From the NCBI GenBank assembly GCA_964426895.1, contig CAYRSH010000002.1, positions 1-53,640 on the forward strand: DNA of 53,640 nt, in the 5' to 3' direction. The translations under genes were made by a program, and so were the position numbers. The stretch comes from an uncultured bacterium. Lineage in GTDB: Bacteria > Hydrothermota > Hydrothermia > LBFQ01. Shown piece after piece: positions 3,131 to 47,368 of this stretch (position 1 is the stretch's first letter; the number at the start of each line of letters is the position of its first letter). The notes under the pieces were generated by a model. The model ran no database searches, was not told the origin of the DNA, and saw nothing but the letters and a program-made list of their open reading frames with translations.

Positions 3131-3142
3131 ATTTTAAGGTTG
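3131..3142 (-). promoter_or_regulatory. Promoter motif caaccttaaaat for the CocE-lpxK unit
   Basis: -10 TAAAAT (3136-3131) lies 7 nt from ATG 3123, giving a leaderless geometry. Confidence 0.55.
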
Positions 3143-3184: not shown

Positions 3185-4294
3185 ATGGTTCCGGAGAAAT
3201 TGGAAGATTTTAGGGAATATGTAAGGGAAATAGCGGAGAAATATGTTAAACCCTGGTCTATGATTGTTGATAAAGAGGACAGGTTTGCAAAGGAAAGCGC
3301 CGAAGCCGTGTTCAAGGCAAACTTGGCAGGCGTAATAATTCCCAAAGGGTATGGGGGTTTGGGTTTATCAACAAAACACTATGTGGTATTTATAGAGGAA
3401 TTGACGAGGGTTTGCCCTTCAACGGCCGTAACCTTTGCGGTAACCTCCGGACTTTCCGCGGGCTTTTTGGTAAATTTCGCATCGGAAGAATTAAAAAGGG
3501 AGTATTTACCAAAGGTTGCAAGTGGAGAATATATAGGGGCTTTTGGTTTAACGGAACCCTGTTGTGGTTCGGATGCGGGAAGTATGAGGACTAAGGCGGA
3601 AGAGGTTGAAGGGGGTTTTAGGATTTATGGGCAAAAAATCTTTATAACAAATGCATCCGTTGCAAAATTCGTTATAACCATGGCAAAAAGCGATCCCGAA
3701 AAGGGTAAAAAGGGTATAACGGCCTTTTTGGTTGATACCGATAGCGATGGATTTTCCGTTATTAAGAACGAGGATAAACTCGGGTGGAGGGGTTCGGTAA
3801 CATCCGCAATATCTTATGACGGAGTTTTTGTCCCTTATGAAAAGATTATAGGAAAAAGGGGGGAAGGTTTTAAGTACGCCTTGGCCTCATTGGATGCGGG
3901 AAGAATAGGAATAGCCGCCATGGGTTTGGGAACTATAAAAAGGGCATTGGAAATTTCTTTGGAATATGTCAAGGAAAACCGATTAAGCGATAACGAGTCC
4001 TTTTCTTTCAGGTTGTCCGATCTCCATTGGATGTATGAAACCGCAAAGGAATACACATTTAAAGCGGCGGAATTGAAGGACAGAGGGGAAAACTTTACAA
4101 GGGAAGCGGCAACGGCCAAATTGATAGCCTCGGAATTTGCTATGAAGGCGGTTAATATAATGATGGATATTTTGGGACCCGACGGCGTTATTTGGGGAGA
4201 GGCGGAAAGGTTGTTCAGGGATACGAAGATTTTGGAAATAGGTGAGGGAACGAGTGAGGTTCAAAGGCTTGTAATTTCTCGATACCTTTTGTGA
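3185..4294 (+). CDS. Acyl-CoA dehydrogenase (short/medium-chain type)
   Basis: GLTEPCCGSDAGSMRTKA and EIGEGTSEVQRLVISR are classic ACAD motifs. Start set at M16 of the track ORF (MVPEKLEDF) because of the promoter at 3164-3173. Confidence 0.9.
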   Translation: MVPEKLEDFREYVREIAEKYVKPWSMIVDKEDRFAKESAEAVFKANLAGVIIPKGYGGLGLSTKHYVVFIEELTRVCPSTAVTFAVTSGLSAGFLVNFASEELKREYLPKVASGEYIGAFGLTEPCCGSDAGSMRTKAEEVEGGFRIYGQKIFITNASVAKFVITMAKSDPEKGKKGITAFLVDTDSDGFSVIKNEDKLGWRGSVTSAISYDGVFVPYEKIIGKRGEGFKYALASLDAGRIGIAAMGLGTIKRALEISLEYVKENRLSDNESFSFRLSDLHWMYETAKEYTFKAAELKDRGENFTREAATAKLIASEFAMKAVNIMMDILGPDGVIWGEAERLFRDTKILEIGEGTSEVQRLVISRYLL

Positions 4295-9860: not shown

Positions 9861-9872
9861 ATTTTAAGGTTG
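9861..9872 (-). promoter_or_regulatory. Promoter motif caaccttaaaat for the Tyr-rich OMP gene
   Basis: -10 lies 10 nt from ATG 9850. Confidence 0.55.
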
Positions 9873-14561: not shown

Positions 14562-14571
14562 GCCTTATAAT
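14562..14571 (+). promoter_or_regulatory. Promoter gccttataat for the TPR-protein gene, embedded in the pseudogene 3' end
   Basis: -10 TATAAT 14566-14571 lies 10 nt before ATG 14582. Confidence 0.5.
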
Positions 14572-16541: not shown

Positions 16542-16614
16542 AGCCACCGGGCGGACTCGAACCGCCGACCTGCGGTTTACGAAACCGCCGCTCTGCCGAC
16601 TGAGCTACGGTGGC
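16542..16614 (-). tRNA. tRNA-Thr (anticodon CGU)
   Basis: Reverse complement gccaccgtagctcagtcggcagagcggcggtttcgtaaaccgcaggtcggcggttcgagtccgcccggtggc folds as 7-bp acceptor, D arm, anticodon loop ttCGTaa, 5-nt variable loop and TPsiC GGTTCGAGTCC. GC-rich relative to the flanks. Confidence 0.93.
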
Positions 16615-16624
16615 GTGAGTAGAT

Positions 16625-16636
16625 ATTATAAGGGTG
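16625..16636 (-). promoter_or_regulatory. Promoter motif cacccttataat for tRNA-Thr
   Basis: -10 TATAAT lies 10 nt upstream of the mature tRNA 5' end. Confidence 0.6.
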
Positions 16637-32365: not shown

Positions 32366-32377
32366 ATTCTAAGGTTG
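32366..32377 (-). promoter_or_regulatory. Promoter caaccttagaat for gcdH, overlapping the cinA-like stop
   Basis: -10 TAGAAT lies 9 nt from ATG 32356. Confidence 0.5.
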
Positions 32378-37413: not shown

Positions 37414-37425
37414 ATTTTAAGGGTG
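37414..37425 (-). promoter_or_regulatory. Promoter cacccttaaaat for recA, bracketed by a 7-bp inverted repeat
   Basis: -10 TAAAAT 37419-37414. 22-nt leader with AAGGGGG SD. Arms TTTTCAC 37399-37405 and GTGAAAA 37423-37429. Confidence 0.55.
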
Positions 37426-43634: not shown

Positions 43635-43646
43635 ATTTTAAGGGTG
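43635..43646 (-). promoter_or_regulatory. Promoter cacccttaaaat for hutU-ogt
   Basis: -10 lies 9 nt from ATG 43625. Confidence 0.55.
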
Positions 43647-43698: not shown

Positions 43699-44673
43699 AT
43701 GTTATGGGTATATGCCGTAGGGGATATAATGTTGGGTTCAATTACCCCGGTTAGGATATTGCCCCCCGATAGTGGAAAAGTTTTTGTGGAAAGCGTAAAA
43801 GGATATTTGGAAGGGGGCGATATAGTTATGGGTAATTTAGAGGGGGCTTTTATAAAGGAGGGTATGAAACCTTCTAAGTGTTCGGAAAGTTCCAGAAAGG
43901 CTAAGAGATGCTATGAATTCGGTATGCCGGGATATTTGGCGAATAGATTAAAGGAAATGGGTTTTAATGTATTAACGCTTGATAACAACCACTCTATGGA
44001 TTACGGTTTTGAAGCGTATAATTACACAAAGCGCCTCTTGGATAGTTTGGGTATATTGGCTGTTGGTAAGCGGGAATATAAGATTATGAACATCGGTAAT
44101 ATAAAGGTTGCAATAGTTCCCTTTGGTTTCAGCGGCTCCTCATGGCATATATCCGATACGATAACGGCAAAAAGCGTTATATCCTCCTTAAAGGATAGCG
44201 CAGATGTTATAATAGTCTCATTTCACGGAGGTGCAGAAGGGGGTAACGCGCGGCATGTTAGAAATGAGGTTGAAAGGTTTTACGGTGAAAACAGGGGTAA
44301 TGTTATGGCGTTTGCCCATGCGGTTATAAATGCCGGTGCGGATTTGGTAATAGGGCACGGCCCCCATGTTTTGAGGGGTGTGGAATTGTATAAAGGTAGG
44401 TTAATAGCGTATTCCTTGGGAAACTTTTTAACCTATGGGAATGTTAATATAGGTGGATATGGGGGTATTACGGCTATACTCAAAGTTATGCTGGATAGCA
44501 CGGGAAAATTCGTAAAGGGTGAGATAGTACCCATTGTACAGAAAAGGCCGGGAATACCGGTTTTTGATGGGGAAAAAAGGGCTATTGAGATAATAAGGGA
44601 ACTTACAAATGAAGACTTTAACGGGGGTGGGGTTGAGATAAAAGACGATGGGTTGATTTTACCAAAAGAATAG
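43699..44673 (+). CDS. CapA/PgsA-family metallophosphatase-like protein
   Basis: 324 aa. GDIMLG, GNLEG, LDNNHSMDYG, SFHGGAEG and GHGPHVLRG motifs. Confidence 0.8.
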   Translation: MLWVYAVGDIMLGSITPVRILPPDSGKVFVESVKGYLEGGDIVMGNLEGAFIKEGMKPSKCSESSRKAKRCYEFGMPGYLANRLKEMGFNVLTLDNNHSMDYGFEAYNYTKRLLDSLGILAVGKREYKIMNIGNIKVAIVPFGFSGSSWHISDTITAKSVISSLKDSADVIIVSFHGGAEGGNARHVRNEVERFYGENRGNVMAFAHAVINAGADLVIGHGPHVLRGVELYKGRLIAYSLGNFLTYGNVNIGGYGGITAILKVMLDSTGKFVKGEIVPIVQKRPGIPVFDGEKRAIEIIRELTNEDFNGGGVEIKDDGLILPKE

Positions 44674-44684
44674 GTTTTATTCTT
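44666..44684. terminator. Weak AT-rich hairpin (aagaata-ggttt-tattctt) flanked by A and T tracts between the convergent capA-like and GT2 genes
   Basis: 7-bp stem read directly. It spans both stop codons. Low stability, so doubtful. Confidence 0.25.
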
Positions 44685-45591
44685 TTTTTAAAGACTTCTT
44701 TATCTTCCTAACCTCATCGTAAATGGATGCCACCACCTCCCCAAGTAATCCCAAAACCCAGAATATAGTTCCCAACACTATTAACAACAAAACCAAAAAA
44801 AGTAAAGGCCTATAACCATGCCCCATTAGGCGGAGTATTAATGCTATAATTCCCGTAATGAAGCCCGTGAAAAAGAAGACACTACCTATTCCACCAAATG
44901 TTAATAGGGGTTTTTGTATAAATACCGTATAAAGTTTTACCGCTATTAAATCCGCAACGCCTACAAATATCCTCCCTATACCCCTATACTTTGAAACACC
45001 GTACAACCTTGGCCTTAGTGTTATTTCAATTTCTCCGACCGAATATCCATAAACCCAAGCCAAAGCCACTATATACCTATGCCATTCCTTCCGTAAAGGT
45101 ATATCTTCCAAAACTTCCCTCCTCACCACCTTTAAAGAATTCATATCGGATACCGGAACACCGAATAACCACCTATTCATAAGGTTATAAACCTGGGAAA
45201 CAAAAGCCTTTTCGTATTTTCCAACTTTCTTTCCGGTAATCAAATCGTATCCGTTTTTCTCCATATAATTCACCATTCTAACCACATCTTCAACCTTAAA
45301 CTGCAAATCCGCATCCAATATGGCTATGTATTTCCCAGAGGATATATAAAAGCCGGTCATTATCGCGGCTGTTTTTCCAAGGTTTCGCCAATGTTTTGCG
45401 ACTTTAAGAAAATTGTAATCCTTTAAGTATTTTTTCACTTCACCATAAGTTCCATCGGTTGAACCATCATCAACATATATAACCTCCCAATCCTTCAAGC
45501 CATATTTATCAAATACTTCCTTACATTCATCCAACAATGGTTTTACATTTTCCCTCTCGTTGTAAGCCGGAACTATTATTGATACCTTCAC
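44677..45591 (-). CDS. GT2 polyprenol-phosphate glycosyltransferase (GtrB/ArnC/Dpm1-like) with C-terminal TM helices
   Basis: 304 aa. VSIIVPAYNERENV, YVDDGSTDGT and ILDADLQ motifs. Two C-terminal hydrophobic helices. GTG start. Confidence 0.8.
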   Translation of the reverse strand: MKVSIIVPAYNERENVKPLLDECKEVFDKYGLKDWEVIYVDDGSTDGTYGEVKKYLKDYNFLKVAKHWRNLGKTAAIMTGFYISSGKYIAILDADLQFKVEDVVRMVNYMEKNGYDLITGKKVGKYEKAFVSQVYNLMNRWLFGVPVSDMNSLKVVRREVLEDIPLRKEWHRYIVALAWVYGYSVGEIEITLRPRLYGVSKYRGIGRIFVGVADLIAVKLYTVFIQKPLLTFGGIGSVFFFTGFITGIIALILRLMGHGYRPLLFLVLLLIVLGTIFWVLGLLGEVVASIYDEVRKIKKSLKKE

Positions 45592-45600
45592 AAAACGGAT

Positions 45601-45612
45601 ATTTTAAAGTGG
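45601..45612 (-). promoter_or_regulatory. Promoter ccactttaaaat for the GtrB-like gene
   Basis: -10 TAAAAT lies 9 nt from GTG 45591. Confidence 0.5.
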
Positions 45613-45643
45613 TGGTAAAAATACCCTTAGACGACTTGAATTT

Positions 45644-45655
45644 CACCCTTAAAAT
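45644..45655 (+). promoter_or_regulatory. Promoter cacccttaaaat for the acidic repeat protein gene
   Basis: Exact copy of the recA and hutU motif. TTAGAC -35-like hexamer 17 nt upstream. 10 nt to ATG 45666. Confidence 0.6.
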
Positions 45656-45665
45656 ACTCGTCTCT

Positions 45666-45890
45666 ATGAAAGGGCTTTTTTCGTTTAGCCATTCGCACAT
45701 GGAGGATATAGAGAGGCTTTTGCGCATAAAGGCTCAAGAGGAGGACTGGGAGGAAGAAGAGGATTGGGACGAGGAAGAATGGGAGGATGAGGATTGGGAC
45801 GAAGATTGGGATGAAGAAGAATGGGAGGATGAGGATTGGGACGAGGAGGAATGGGAAGAGGAGGACTGGGAGGAAGAAGAAGAGAAATAA
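45666..45890 (+). CDS. 74-aa hyper-acidic Trp-punctuated repeat protein (no family recognised)
   Basis: MKGLFSFSHSHMEDIERLLRIKAQ followed by 50 residues, all D/E/W apart from the terminal K. Start chosen from the promoter geometry. The track ORF start at 45537 would overlap the divergent GT2 gene. Confidence 0.6.
   Translation: MKGLFSFSHSHMEDIERLLRIKAQEEDWEEEEDWDEEEWEDEDWDEDWDEEEWEDEDWDEEEWEEEDWEEEEEK
45738..45887 (+). repeat. Imperfect in-frame tandem repeat (12-18-nt acidic-W units; 30-nt higher-order unit gacgaggaagaatgggaggatgaggattgg with two diverged copies)
   Basis: Nine TGG codons, each preceded by 3-5 GAN codons, read directly. Confidence 0.85.
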
Positions 45891-45934
45891 TCTCCAGCAA
45901 ATAGTTTTCAGATATTCCCCGATTTTTGGGTATT

Positions 45935-46130
45935 GATAGGGTTTGTAATGCCCTGTTATGGCAAAAGGGGGAATCCGTTCAGGAGGTTGAGGAGGTCCTA
46001 TTTTCCTTAGGACACTACCGGGTGATGTAAAGATAAGAAATGGGCACACGGGTGCTTTAAGGGGAGCATGCCCGGAGGCAATTCGGTTCTGCCAAAGCCG
46101 AAAATGCCGTGAGTGGTCTCCTACGGGATA
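45935..46130. ncRNA. Candidate structured RNA or leader of unknown class (strand unresolved)
   Basis: No credible ORF. About 50% GC by hand count against roughly 40% in the flanks. Hairpins: aggg/ccct 45938-45954, gtcct/aggac 45995-46013, gcac-acgg-gtgc 46044-46055, ggcaattcgg/ccgaaaatgcc 46077-46108 nested in cccgga/ctacggg 46071-46127. Confidence 0.3.
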
Positions 46131-46136
46131 TATTAA

Positions 46137-46148
46137 CACCTTTACAAT
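46137..46148 (+). promoter_or_regulatory. Promoter cacctttacaat for bioY
   Basis: -10 TACAAT 46143-46148 lies 6 nt before ATG 46155. Confidence 0.45.
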
Positions 46149-46154
46149 TCCCAT

Positions 46155-46682
46155 ATGCGTCTCATTATAGGATTAAGGGATAAGGTATGGGTTTGGGTGG
46201 TTTTTTGGAATATGACACTTATTTTATCCTCGGGTATTTCAATACCCCTTCCCTTCTCACCCGTCCCCATAACCTTGCAAACACTCGCACTTATCCTCAC
46301 AATACTATCCCTTGGAAGGATGGCCTATATTCCCGTTTTAATGTACATAATTGAGGGAGTTCTTGGTTTTCCCGTATTTGCGGGTTGGATGGGGGGCATA
46401 TGGAAATTGTTAGGTCCAACAGGTGGATACATACTCGGTTTCTTAGCATCATCCCTTGTGGCGGGTTATATATGGGAAACCTCGGGAAGGCGTGAAATAT
46501 TCGTCATACCTTTGGGATTCCTCGTTCATATCATAATATACGCCTTTGGTGTTATACAACTCTCAATATTTACCGGGTGGAACAATATTTTGGCCTTAGG
46601 CGTTTTACCGTTTTTGTACGGGGATACATTAAAAGTTATCACATCTTATCTCATATTTAAGGGTTGGAAGGCTTATACATAG
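46155..46682 (+). CDS. bioY: Biotin transporter S-component BioY
   Basis: 175 aa. PVPITLQTLALILT, GFPVFAGWMGG and GPTGGYILGF are BioY hallmarks. Confidence 0.85.
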   Translation: MRLIIGLRDKVWVWVVFWNMTLILSSGISIPLPFSPVPITLQTLALILTILSLGRMAYIPVLMYIIEGVLGFPVFAGWMGGIWKLLGPTGGYILGFLASSLVAGYIWETSGRREIFVIPLGFLVHIIIYAFGVIQLSIFTGWNNILALGVLPFLYGDTLKVITSYLIFKGWKAYT

Positions 46683-47368
46683 GGATTATCGTTTTTAGCA
46701 TTCTCCTTTCGTTTTTGGTTTCATCCTTTGAAATGGTTTATATTAGGAAATCGCCCCTTTTTTCAATCTTTGAAGGATATCTATACGATAGAACGGGGGT
46801 ACTCATTACCGTACTGTTTTGGAATACATTTGCTTTGGTTTTGGGTACGGTTCATATATACAAACTCTTACACATTTTGAAAATACCTTATGATATTCTA
46901 ATTTCCGGATTTGGAGGGGCGCTTATATTCGCTATATTCGGGGATTTGATTCCCAAAGTTTTGGCGGTAATATGGACGGAAAGGTTGTTTAATGTTTTGG
47001 TATATCCCTTTATAGTTTTATACCTCGTATTACGAACCTTGCGCGTAACGAATTTGGCATCAAAAATCTTAACATCAAAGTATTCAAGGCGGGAAGTTTT
47101 GGACTTCCTAATTTCAAACTTAAAGCAGTATATGGACGAGGGCGATATAAACTTTATCCGTTCAGTAGAAAAGCATCTACACAAACCGGCCAAAGACTAT
47201 GTTGTAAAAGGACTAAACGGGACAGATTTTATTGTTGATGAAAACAGTTCCTGCTTGGATGTTTTGAGTTTTATGAGGAAAAAAGGGATAACAAGGCTTT
47301 GCATTGGTAGTGCCGGTGTGTTTGATTTGCACGAATTCATAAAAACCATAGTAAAATCTCATCTTTAA
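46664..47368 (+). CDS. Short CNNM/DUF21-type membrane protein with a single CBS-like C-terminal segment
   Basis: 234 aa. SSFEMVYI and FGDLIPKVLA are DUF21-like. TTG start overlaps the bioY end. Confidence 0.55.
   Translation: MEGLYIGIIVFSILLSFLVSSFEMVYIRKSPLFSIFEGYLYDRTGVLITVLFWNTFALVLGTVHIYKLLHILKIPYDILISGFGGALIFAIFGDLIPKVLAVIWTERLFNVLVYPFIVLYLVLRTLRVTNLASKILTSKYSRREVLDFLISNLKQYMDEGDINFIRSVEKHLHKPAKDYVVKGLNGTDFIVDENSSCLDVLSFMRKKGITRLCIGSAGVFDLHEFIKTIVKSHL

Follow-up and report, generated by a model that had tools for sequence, protein, structure and literature searches.

Polyanionic disordered proteins and tails made up of aspartate/glutamate (D/E) repeats are known from prothymosin-α and from the C-terminal tail of the δ subunit of Firmicutes RNA polymerase, and Ocr, ArdA and the pentapeptide-repeat proteins Qnr and MfpA represent folded DNA mimics, the pentapeptide repeat having a period of five residues with a central hydrophobic residue. 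A role in DNA mimicry and autoinhibition has been described for D/E repeats as well as for electronegative clusters (PMC10250230, PMC8348266). In WalK, the Trp of the disordered W-acidic tail is essential for binding of WalR and for competition with the DNA site of WalR (PMC9087282), and the small acidic proteins LysW and ArgW of thermophiles carry a functionally essential acidic Trp motif, EDWGE (PMC10433800). The DNA stretch analyzed here (53,640 nucleotides (nt) of contig CAYRSH010000002.1, assembly GCA_964426895.1, from an uncultured bacterium of the Hydrothermota; hereafter the window) harbours a micro open reading frame (micro-ORF; 45666..45890, + strand) for a hyper-acidic, Trp-punctuated micro-protein, which relates to two of these known kinds, i.e., polyanionic disordered proteins and W-acidic motifs, and is a member of no known family.

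The micro-ORF extends from an ATG at 45666 to a TAA at 45888-45890 and encodes a product of 74 amino acids (aa), comprising the N-terminal part MKGLFSFSHSHMEDIERLLRIKAQ and a 50-residue tail (residues 25-74; 45738..45887, + strand). The tail is composed of nine (D/E)3-5-W units followed by EEEEEK, so that, with the exception of the terminal K, all of its residues (49 of 50) are D, E or W. D/E runs of 3-5 residues separate the nine Trp residues at a W-to-W spacing of 4-6, a regularity that was not attained once when nine W were placed at random 20,000 times. These features agree exactly with an earlier description made from the letters alone (the sequence-only reading). The net charge amounts to -39 for the tail and -38 for the whole product. 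Since an identical micro-ORF sequence is present in two further, independent assemblies (ENA ERZ1669417 and Logan DRR163687; three assemblies in all), the micro-ORF is no assembly artefact.

Orthologous or otherwise compared loci are designated by L-numbers and protein clusters by P-numbers. Scans seeded with the divergently oriented gene for a family 2 glycosyltransferase (GT2) recovered L003-L006 from the genome collection as well as L019-L025 and L032 from metagenomes of the Joint Genome Institute (JGI), and a profile search added P0005/L015; all of these contain same-frame orthologues of the micro-ORF. Altogether, 17 loci from independent Caldipriscus-type WOR-3 assemblies hold 13 distinct micro-proteins with 4-18 W and lengths of 47, 71, 73, 74, 78, 79, 80, 81, 82, 87, 95 or 147 aa, additional length variants being found among cluster members (P0035-P0037). 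The ATG is conserved in 17/17 loci, and the length differences are always multiples of 3 in the + frame. Identities of the micro-proteins to that of the window (64-89 %) fall within the range of the neighbouring genes (51-97 %). The number of tail units varies from 4 to 11 among the reliable orthologues and reaches 18 in L025. The latter encodes a 147-aa variant (1753-2196, - strand) on a 4.5-kb contig, with 18 W and two W-to-C changes near the end, and may represent either a true repeat expansion or a mis-assembly of the repeats.

An indication of selection on the protein comes from the non-repetitive motif segment of 22 codons. Here the proportion of synonymous differences (pS) is 0.8-1.0, i.e., saturated between lineages, at a proportion of nonsynonymous differences (pN) of ~0.2, an estimate that comprises only ~9.5 synonymous sites. 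For the window and L003, the motif segment yields a ratio of nonsynonymous to synonymous substitution rates (dN/dS) of 0.07, and the E, L and L codons of the motif differ synonymously between lineages. In the tract itself, invariant alignment columns follow G-A-x with period 3 and only third codon positions vary. All 39 of the 39 GAR and TGG codons are one substitution away from a stop, and in-frame stops occur in none of the variants. The micro-ORF is therefore very probably a real, selected protein-coding gene. The sequence-only reading had held that non-triplet length variation in relatives, conservation of only the opposite-strand frame or absence of the region from close relatives would speak against a gene; instead, every close relative that was found contains the locus, the + frame is kept and the antisense frame is broken.

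At the DNA level the tract is a purine-rich tandem array of 15-nt units with a GC skew of up to +0.77. Tandem Repeats Finder reports periods of 15, 30 and 42 nt with 74-76 % matches, which renders the earlier description as a 30-nt unit with diverged copies a fair one, and a repeat search yields nine registers at 15-nt spacing, with one at 12, all units being multiples of 3. GAG accounts for 57-67 % of the Glu codons of the tract in the window and its orthologues, compared to 37 % across 35 long window ORFs. For GAC, the share is ~38 % of the Asp codons, compared to 19 % in these ORFs. This bias results in 8-14 GGAGG motifs per tract that resemble Shine-Dalgarno (SD) sequences; their number exceeds the prediction from genomic codon usage in three lineages (window, L005, L019), L006 being the exception. 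Selection for internal GGAGG motifs was considered and rejected, since enrichment in three lineages but not in L006 is inconsistent.

Such a composition invites the alternative that the region is non-coding in the + frame and serves as a regulatory purine tract (H-DNA or a sponge of SD-like GGAGG motifs), or that the gene resides on the other strand. The near-pure purine composition with its pronounced GC skew, the GGAGG motifs in excess of codon usage in three of the four lineages tested, and an antisense ORF of 175 aa in the window (45627-46154) are in line with this. However, the antisense ORF is broken in L003, the GT2 of which is 94 % identical, as well as in all other relatives, and was therefore dismissed as a gene. 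Moreover, the tract accumulates substitutions with period 3 and with Asp codons (GAY) interspersed, the protein motif is conserved while synonymous sites are saturated, GGAGG is not enriched in L006, and scanning of 45500-46300 against Rfam revealed no RNA family at gathering or E-value threshold. A non-coding region is thus highly improbable. As a separate observation, the +1 frame of the acidic tract is open as well (45787-45936, + strand; L003 5647-5781, - strand; L006 5687-5887, - strand) and would yield a hyper-basic, R-, K- and G-rich peptide with its own ATG, the position of which varies between loci; this open frame is most likely a by-product of the GAR repeats.

Expression signals accord with a gene. 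The 12-mer CACCCTTAAAAT (45644..45655, + strand) includes the -10 hexamer TAAAAT (45650-45655), which ends 10 nt before the ATG at 45666. Exact copies, previously noted upstream of hutU and recA, are located 9 nt before the ATG of hutU (43635-43646) and 22 nt before that of recA (37414-37425). Allowing for one mismatch, the window contains eight matches to the 12-mer compared to 1.26 expected, a number reached in 0 of 100 shuffles. The core CCTTAnAAT occurs 19 times in the window and precedes by 7-10 nt the ATG of six ORFs (74-652 aa, including hutU), with a seventh ORF running off the window; furthermore, a 12-mer with one mismatch precedes a tRNA (16542-16614), ending 10 nt from the mature 5' terminus. 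Individual (C)CCTTAnAAT sites are positioned at 393-404, 3131-3142, 9861-9872, 14563-14571, 16625-16636, 32366-32374 and 43635-43646. This placement before ORFs and a tRNA suggests that the element is the -10-type promoter of the organism and that many of its mRNAs are leaderless, such mRNAs apparently being widely used and the -10 carrying a C-rich extension upstream. The micro-ORF conforms to this canonical geometry.

Every orthologous locus displays the -10-type element followed after 9-11 nt by the ATG, which points to a leaderless mRNA of the micro-ORF. The element reads C(A/G)CCCTTA(A/G)AAT in all orthologous loci except L015, where it is CCACCTTAAAAT. The hexamer TTAGAC (45627..45632, + strand), formerly proposed as a -35-like element 17 nt upstream of the -10, is indeed present in the window and in L003, but it is not conserved in L004, L005 and L006. 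The earlier argument from the promoter, namely that the ORF is a real gene of expressed appearance, holds and gains precision: the motif is the -10-type element of this organism, and its placement implies leaderless mRNAs. A 92-aa gene predicted by Prodigal from a GTG at 45612 was rejected because it reads through the conserved promoter: the extension contains the conserved -10 and is not conserved as protein in L004 and L006.

The GT2 gene, which starts with GTG or TTG, likewise seems to be transcribed without a leader, judging from a -10-type element CTTTAAAAT (45601..45609, - strand) 9 nt before the GTG at 45591; the corresponding columns ATATTTTAAAGTGG of alignment A1 are conserved, and the geometry is TAAAAT, 7 nt, TTG in L004 and likewise 7 nt, TTG in L006. 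The -10 hexamers of micro-ORF and GT2 are arranged back to back at a distance of 43 nt in the window and of ~15 nt in L006, where simultaneous binding of two polymerases is presumably precluded by the short distance.

The micro-ORF is single-copy and restricted to one hot-spring WOR-3 lineage of the Ca. Caldipriscus type. The GT2 of the window is 94 % identical to that of a WOR-3 metagenome-assembled genome (MAG) and 79-82 % to the GT2 of MAGs assigned to Ca. Caldipriscus, a hyperthermophile of 82-84 °C that is abundant and has a genome of ~1.5 Mb (PMC11696919). No such ORF is found next to the GT2 genes of remoter WOR-3, which are 46-52 % identical and share no synteny with the window. When 1.84 billion representative proteins were searched exhaustively with HMMER, only the own clusters P0001 and P0005 were matched, and a word-indexed search of 5.8 billion proteins revealed nothing beyond these two. 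The micro-protein has no match in Pfam, NCBIfam, PHROGs or PADLOC, a profile search of the PDB yielded only chance matches to helical proteins, and viral contigs contained no relative. The micro-protein is thus previously undescribed and falls outside all described families, homologues being detected only within its clade, in accordance with the initial failure to recognize a characterized bacterial family.

Weak matches proved to be unrelated small proteins that bear a similar acid-W tail on other heads, i.e., a LysW-type Zn ribbon (P0008), a STAS domain (P0002) or a transmembrane segment plus SEC-C motif (P0029, P0033). Examples are two LysW-type Zn-ribbon proteins with (D/E)nW tails in L016 (8001-8237 and 9434-9631), adjacent to an ABC transporter/GNAT cluster, and, in a Bacteroidia MAG, a protein with a STAS domain and a (D/E)nW tail (L035, 5001-5459). 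The acid-W tail looks like a convergent, modular kind of tail; its recurrence on unrelated heads suggests a modular binding appendage and hints at a common receptor.

On this background, the micro-ORF could also be a young, effectively neutral ORF that arose by GAR/TGG triplet expansion beside a strong bidirectional promoter and stays open by chance. Its confinement to one narrow clade without other relatives among the 1.84 billion representatives, its absence beside the ~50 %-identical GT2 genes of remoter WOR-3, copy numbers ranging from 4 to 18, a codon usage atypical for the genome, and the fact that purine-only repeats are free of stops in two of three forward frames (with the +1 frame being open here) would all fit. 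Several of these points, together with the few synonymous sites mentioned above, weigh against a selected gene: the family is limited to one narrow clade and its extreme N-terminus evolves fast, the repeat units are multiples of 3 nt, so that preservation of the frame is partly mechanical and independent evidence is needed, and concerted evolution of the repeats could preserve the Trp codons without selection. Five lines supply such independent evidence, namely the saturated synonymous sites at low pN in the motif segment, the G-A-x columns of the tract, the absence of in-frame stops, the broken antisense ORF, and identities that match the range of the neighbouring genes. Chance nevertheless accounts poorly for a pN far below pS in the non-repeat motif, for the conservation of ATG and promoter at all loci, and for 39 GAR/TGG codons close to a stop of which none was hit despite saturated synonymous sites between lineages. 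It also does not explain retention of the gene in a genome of only ~1.5 Mb (PMC11696919) and in L015, where the GT2 was lost. A neutral ORF is therefore considered rather improbable.

With respect to product anatomy, alignments and an AlphaFold2 model agree on an amphipathic-helix motif at codons M12-W28 (45699..45749, + strand). The conserved motif, [IML]-E-[RE]-[LM]-L-x-[IL]-x-A-[QK]-x-x-D-W, makes up one hydrophobic helix face (phi-E-x-phi-L-x-phi-x-A-x-x-x-D-W), and the first 8-12 residues are variable. According to the model, residues 6-24 are helical; the predicted local distance difference test score (pLDDT) is 60 on average and peaks at 72 for residues 11-20. The tail is predicted to be disordered (pLDDT 52-63), and strands are absent. 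Tails of the reliable variants consist of (D/E)3-6-W repeated 4-11 times with net charges of -19 to -56 and terminate in a run of five to eight acidic residues, to which a K may be added (EEEEEK, EEEEE, EEEEEEK); apart from this K, one N and one G are the only residues other than D, E or W. Neither a signal peptide nor a transmembrane segment nor a hydrophobic N-terminus was detected in any variant, and the protein is therefore presumably cytoplasmic.

The product may tentatively be viewed as a cytoplasmic polyanion whose multiple W-acidic motifs compete for the basic surfaces by which proteins bind nucleic acids, a reading by analogy to which a probability of roughly 0.35 is assigned. In such a mechanism, the helix would dock on a partner or dimerize, and the tail would act as a nucleic-acid-like polyanion, its carboxylates imitating phosphates and its indoles serving as stacking anchors. 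Thereby the tail could occupy basic nucleic-acid-binding surfaces of at least one partner protein in the manner of a competitor, decoy or holdase. The ideas of a multivalent W-acidic ligand and of a nucleic-acid mimic, both already put forward from the sequence, gain a possible bacterial precedent by analogy with the WalK tail (PMC9087282).

Translation of such a tract may pose a problem of its own. Consecutive acidic residues destabilize translating ribosomes (intrinsic ribosome destabilization, IRD), with the highest risk before ~30 residues fill the exit tunnel, and bulky residues as well as a tunnel-filling peptide counteract this D/E-induced destabilization (Chadani et al., bioRxiv 10.1101/2021.02.02.429294). 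A Trp every 4-7 residues would cap D/E runs at six or fewer and thereby could keep the tract translatable, so that the Trp spacing may be what makes the tract translatable at all. Two points count against a nucleic-acid decoy: the mechanism is argued by analogy with a partner that is hypothetical, and it would explain neither the pairing with GT2 nor the glycan/CorC-like operon downstream.

The GT2 gene (44677..45591, - strand; Pfam PF00535, E 3.5e-31) encodes a glycosyltransferase of the polyprenyl-phosphate type (ArnC, GtrB, DPM1, AglJ-like) with a C-terminal membrane segment; its best NCBIfam matches are ArnC, PgfS and AglJ, full length and all below cut-offs. It is arranged back to back with the micro-ORF in all orthologous loci but one and is the only neighbour common to nearly all. 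The expected GT2 synteny thus holds within the Caldipriscus-type clade and is missing beside the ~50 %-identical GT2 genes of remoter WOR-3. The usual order (L004, L005, L019-L025, L032) is hutU, GT2 and, on the opposite strand, the micro-ORF. In 10 loci, the stop of the micro-ORF is followed after 16 nt (28 nt in L019) by the TTG of a gene for a DUF21/CNNM/CorC-like membrane protein and then by tightly packed genes for a GMPPB-like sugar-1-phosphate nucleotidyltransferase, a DUF4149 protein and a GH99/WbsX-like protein. The assignment of the DUF21-like protein (46664..47368, + strand, in the window) is based on a Pfam CNNM match below cut-off (E 4.9e-4) and on PDB matches that are confined to the CorC transmembrane domains 7cfg (E 0.48) and 7cff (E 1.6).

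In the window, a BioY gene (46155-46682, + strand) is inserted between micro-ORF and DUF21-like gene, the TTG start of the latter lying inside the 3' end of BioY (46664-46682). In both the window and L003, BioY possesses its own CCTTTAyAAT, 6 nt, ATG. The promoter CCTTTACAAT, 6 nt and ATG (46139-46157, + strand) are conserved in L003, and the start is therefore likely at 46155 rather than at the later Met chosen by the gene caller. Of the spacer between micro-ORF and BioY, a G-rich part with two GGAGG motifs (45895-46085, + strand; ~190 nt) is missing in L003. In L006, the micro-ORF is followed by gdh with its own TAAAAT, 8 nt, ATG. Since the downstream gene has a -10 and ATG of its own in the window, L003 and L006, the micro-ORF is kept there as a separate transcription unit.

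Gene and promoter are also intact in L015, where they follow uvrC and GT2 is reduced to a ~70-bp remnant of its 5' end (region 3312-3420). In L032 (2632-3575), GT2 is split into two ORFs with micro-ORF and promoter intact. The GT2 remnant of L015 and the split GT2 of L032 could reflect an assembly or sequencing problem. Three different downstream contexts together with at least one locus without GT2 argue for a trans-acting product over a purely cis-acting leader.

The 16-nt junction nevertheless raises the question of a cis translational rheostat, the main rival reading. In this case, the micro-ORF as leaderless first cistron opposite GT2 would provoke Mg2+- or temperature-dependent IRD by its D/E tract. 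Only ribosomes that finish would start again on the DUF21/CorC-like gene, the TTG of which lies 16 nt downstream and has no SD, so that output of exporter and glycan operon would track ribosome stability, with Trp tuning the abort rate. The stop-to-TTG distance of 16 nt (28 nt in L019) in 10 loci with tightly packed same-strand genes thereafter is compatible with such coupling, as is the onset of the D/E tract at residue 20-25, short of the ~30 aa that fill the tunnel. CNNM/CorC (Pfam E 4.9e-4; PDB 7cfg) are the only family signals of the downstream protein, and MgtL and MgtQ provide precedents of acidic IRD upstream ORFs before Mg2+ transporters. However, conservation of the micro-ORF is no weaker where the next gene has its own promoter (window, L003, L006), a sensor needs neither 50-70 acidic residues nor a conserved helix motif, the CorC assignment is below every threshold, and demonstrations of IRD are confined to E. 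coli, Salmonella and yeast. Moreover, no alternative RNA structures or terminator were found downstream of the micro-ORF: the 264-nt spacer that precedes BioY shows no significant fold (z = -1.5) and no Rfam match. A cis rheostat is thus judged unlikely. One may speculate, with still less confidence, about a natural ribosome-stability gauge in a hyperthermophile, in which destabilization of ribosomes by the nascent chain limits completion of the micro-ORF, the periodic bulky Trp tunes it, and completion in turn sets reinitiation on the CorC-like/glycan operon; if true, envelope and cation-export genes would be coupled to Mg2+ and temperature without protein or RNA sensor.

Binding of cations, another of the initial proposals, gains weak context from the DUF21/CorC-like gene located downstream in most loci. 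Acting alongside a CorC-like exporter, a cytoplasmic cation sink or buffer would bind Mg2+, Ca2+ or the long polyamines typical of hyperthermophiles by its 40-56 carboxylates. The tail net charge of -39 to -56 suits this function, and CorC proteins are linked to stress by excess Mg2+ and polyamines (PMC12421838, PMC11957008). However, the strictly conserved Trp residues and the conserved N-terminal helix would remain unexplained, the CorC-like gene is not linked in L006 and is separated from the micro-ORF in the window and L003, and one small protein would be a poor buffer unless very abundant. Buffering of cations is therefore a doubtful function.

The initial proposal of a glycosylation substrate is disfavoured. 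More broadly, the micro-protein could be modified by Trp C-glycosylation or another glycosylation fed by GT2, or could represent the precursor of a ribosomally synthesized and post-translationally modified peptide (RiPP) or a LysW-like carrier. The locus has a mannose flavour (DPM1/ArnC-type GT2, GMPPB_C-matching nucleotidyltransferase, GH99-like protein), a leader-like helix followed by repeats resembles multi-core precursors, and LysW carriers are likewise small and acidic, ending in EDWGE. In addition, a PGA_cap (CapA-like) gene matching MslH is located two genes away in the window lineage. However, transfer from polyprenyl-phosphate sugars to protein is extracytoplasmic and the variants have neither signal peptide nor transmembrane or hydrophobic segment. 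The spacing of W is 4-7 and never WxxW, whereas Trp C-mannosylation involves a WxxW/C acceptor motif on a secreted or luminal polypeptide and a DPY19-type GT-C enzyme, and the called cluster genes include none resembling GT-C. The annotated part of the window (~16.7-53.6 kb) contains no gene for a GT-C, radical-SAM, ATP-grasp, protease or exporter protein, and no RiPP maturase, protease or exporter is co-conserved with the micro-ORF, GT2 being the sole co-conserved neighbour and the downstream genes varying. Cys, an EDWGE end and a Pfam LysW match are missing. A modification substrate is accordingly very unlikely.

The PGA_cap gene (43699-44673, + strand) lies between hutU and GT2 in the window lineage only. 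Its product matches the NCBIfam model MslH, a lasso-peptide C-terminal Trp epimerase, with E 1.9e-20 and 72.7 bits at a cut-off of 700. As a Trp epimerase for the micro-protein it was rejected, since the match is at superfamily level and the gene is absent from L003 and all other orthologous loci; its confinement to the window lineage renders a link to the Trp-rich peptide probably coincidental.

Returning to the W-acidic polyanion, the product, if made, would be among the most extreme natural bacterial polyanions, free-standing and with only three residue types in the tail. With 4-11 W-acidic motifs on a 20-residue docking helix, it could serve as a model for acidic/aromatic 'stickers' that recognize basic surfaces. 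It would also provide a natural test of whether and how ribosomes make very long D/E tracts, here at 82-84 °C (PMC11696919), and the Trp periodicity is in keeping with the reported rule by which destabilization of ribosomes is offset by bulky residues. Gene callers either missed the gene (T1.2-type variants are absent from the protein collection) or chose a wrong GTG through the promoter, and these miscalls illustrate how leaderless micro-genes get lost in the annotation of MAGs.

Among described systems, LysW and ArgW share with the micro-protein a very small size, high acidity and an acidic Trp motif. LysW and ArgW possess an N-terminal Zn ribbon with 3-4 Cys (PF21344), and their genes neighbour those for LysX/ArgX ATP-grasp ligases and LysZYJK. 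The micro-protein differs from them by the absence of Cys from the reliable variants and by lacking an EDWGE terminus and a match to PF21344. Genes for ATP-grasp enzymes or for lysine/arginine biosynthesis were not found among the called genes at ~16.7-53.6 kb.

MgtL (before mgtA) and MgtQ (before mgtB) resemble the micro-ORF in that an acidic peptide near the N-terminus is encoded upstream of a (putative) Mg2+ transport gene, and the logic of ribosome stability would be shared. However, MgtQ has only 8 aa, IRD in MgtL takes place at a nascent chain of at most 6 residues, and both act through RNA switches. In contrast, the micro-ORF encodes 47-95 aa with a conserved helix, has no switch structures and is kept where the downstream gene is self-promoted; its D/E tract starts within the ~30-aa tunnel length but is preceded by bulky residues, no terminator-like site is present downstream, and the purine tract cannot pair with itself.

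Ocr, ArdA, Qnr and MfpA present an array of negative charges that imitates DNA, as is proposed for the micro-protein tail. They are rigid folds, with a strict five-residue period and a β-helix in case of the pentapeptide repeats, whereas the tail is predicted to be disordered, has a period of 4-7 and no match to Pfam Pentapeptide. Polyanionic D/E-repeat proteins are comparable in that they are extremely negative and predicted to be disordered, and they are likewise proposed to mimic nucleic acids, to compete for basic surfaces or to chaperone them. Unlike the micro-protein, their D/E tracts are without a periodic aromatic residue, and δ in addition has a folded N-terminal domain.

The W-acidic short linear motifs, i.e., the WalK tail of S. 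mutans and S. aureus and the tetratricopeptide-repeat ligands of kinesin light chain in eukaryotes, likewise present Trp amid acidic residues in a disordered context. Correspondingly, every Trp in the micro-protein variants is flanked by D or E within a tail predicted to be disordered. Known W-acidic motifs have a defined receptor, a response-regulator DNA-binding domain or a tetratricopeptide-repeat groove. No sequence homology connects the two, and the receptor of the micro-protein is hypothetical. The main difference is one of architecture: one or two motifs terminate a large folded protein in case of the WalK and kinesin-light-chain types, compared to 4-11 tandem motifs in a free-standing protein of 47-95 aa in case of the micro-protein.

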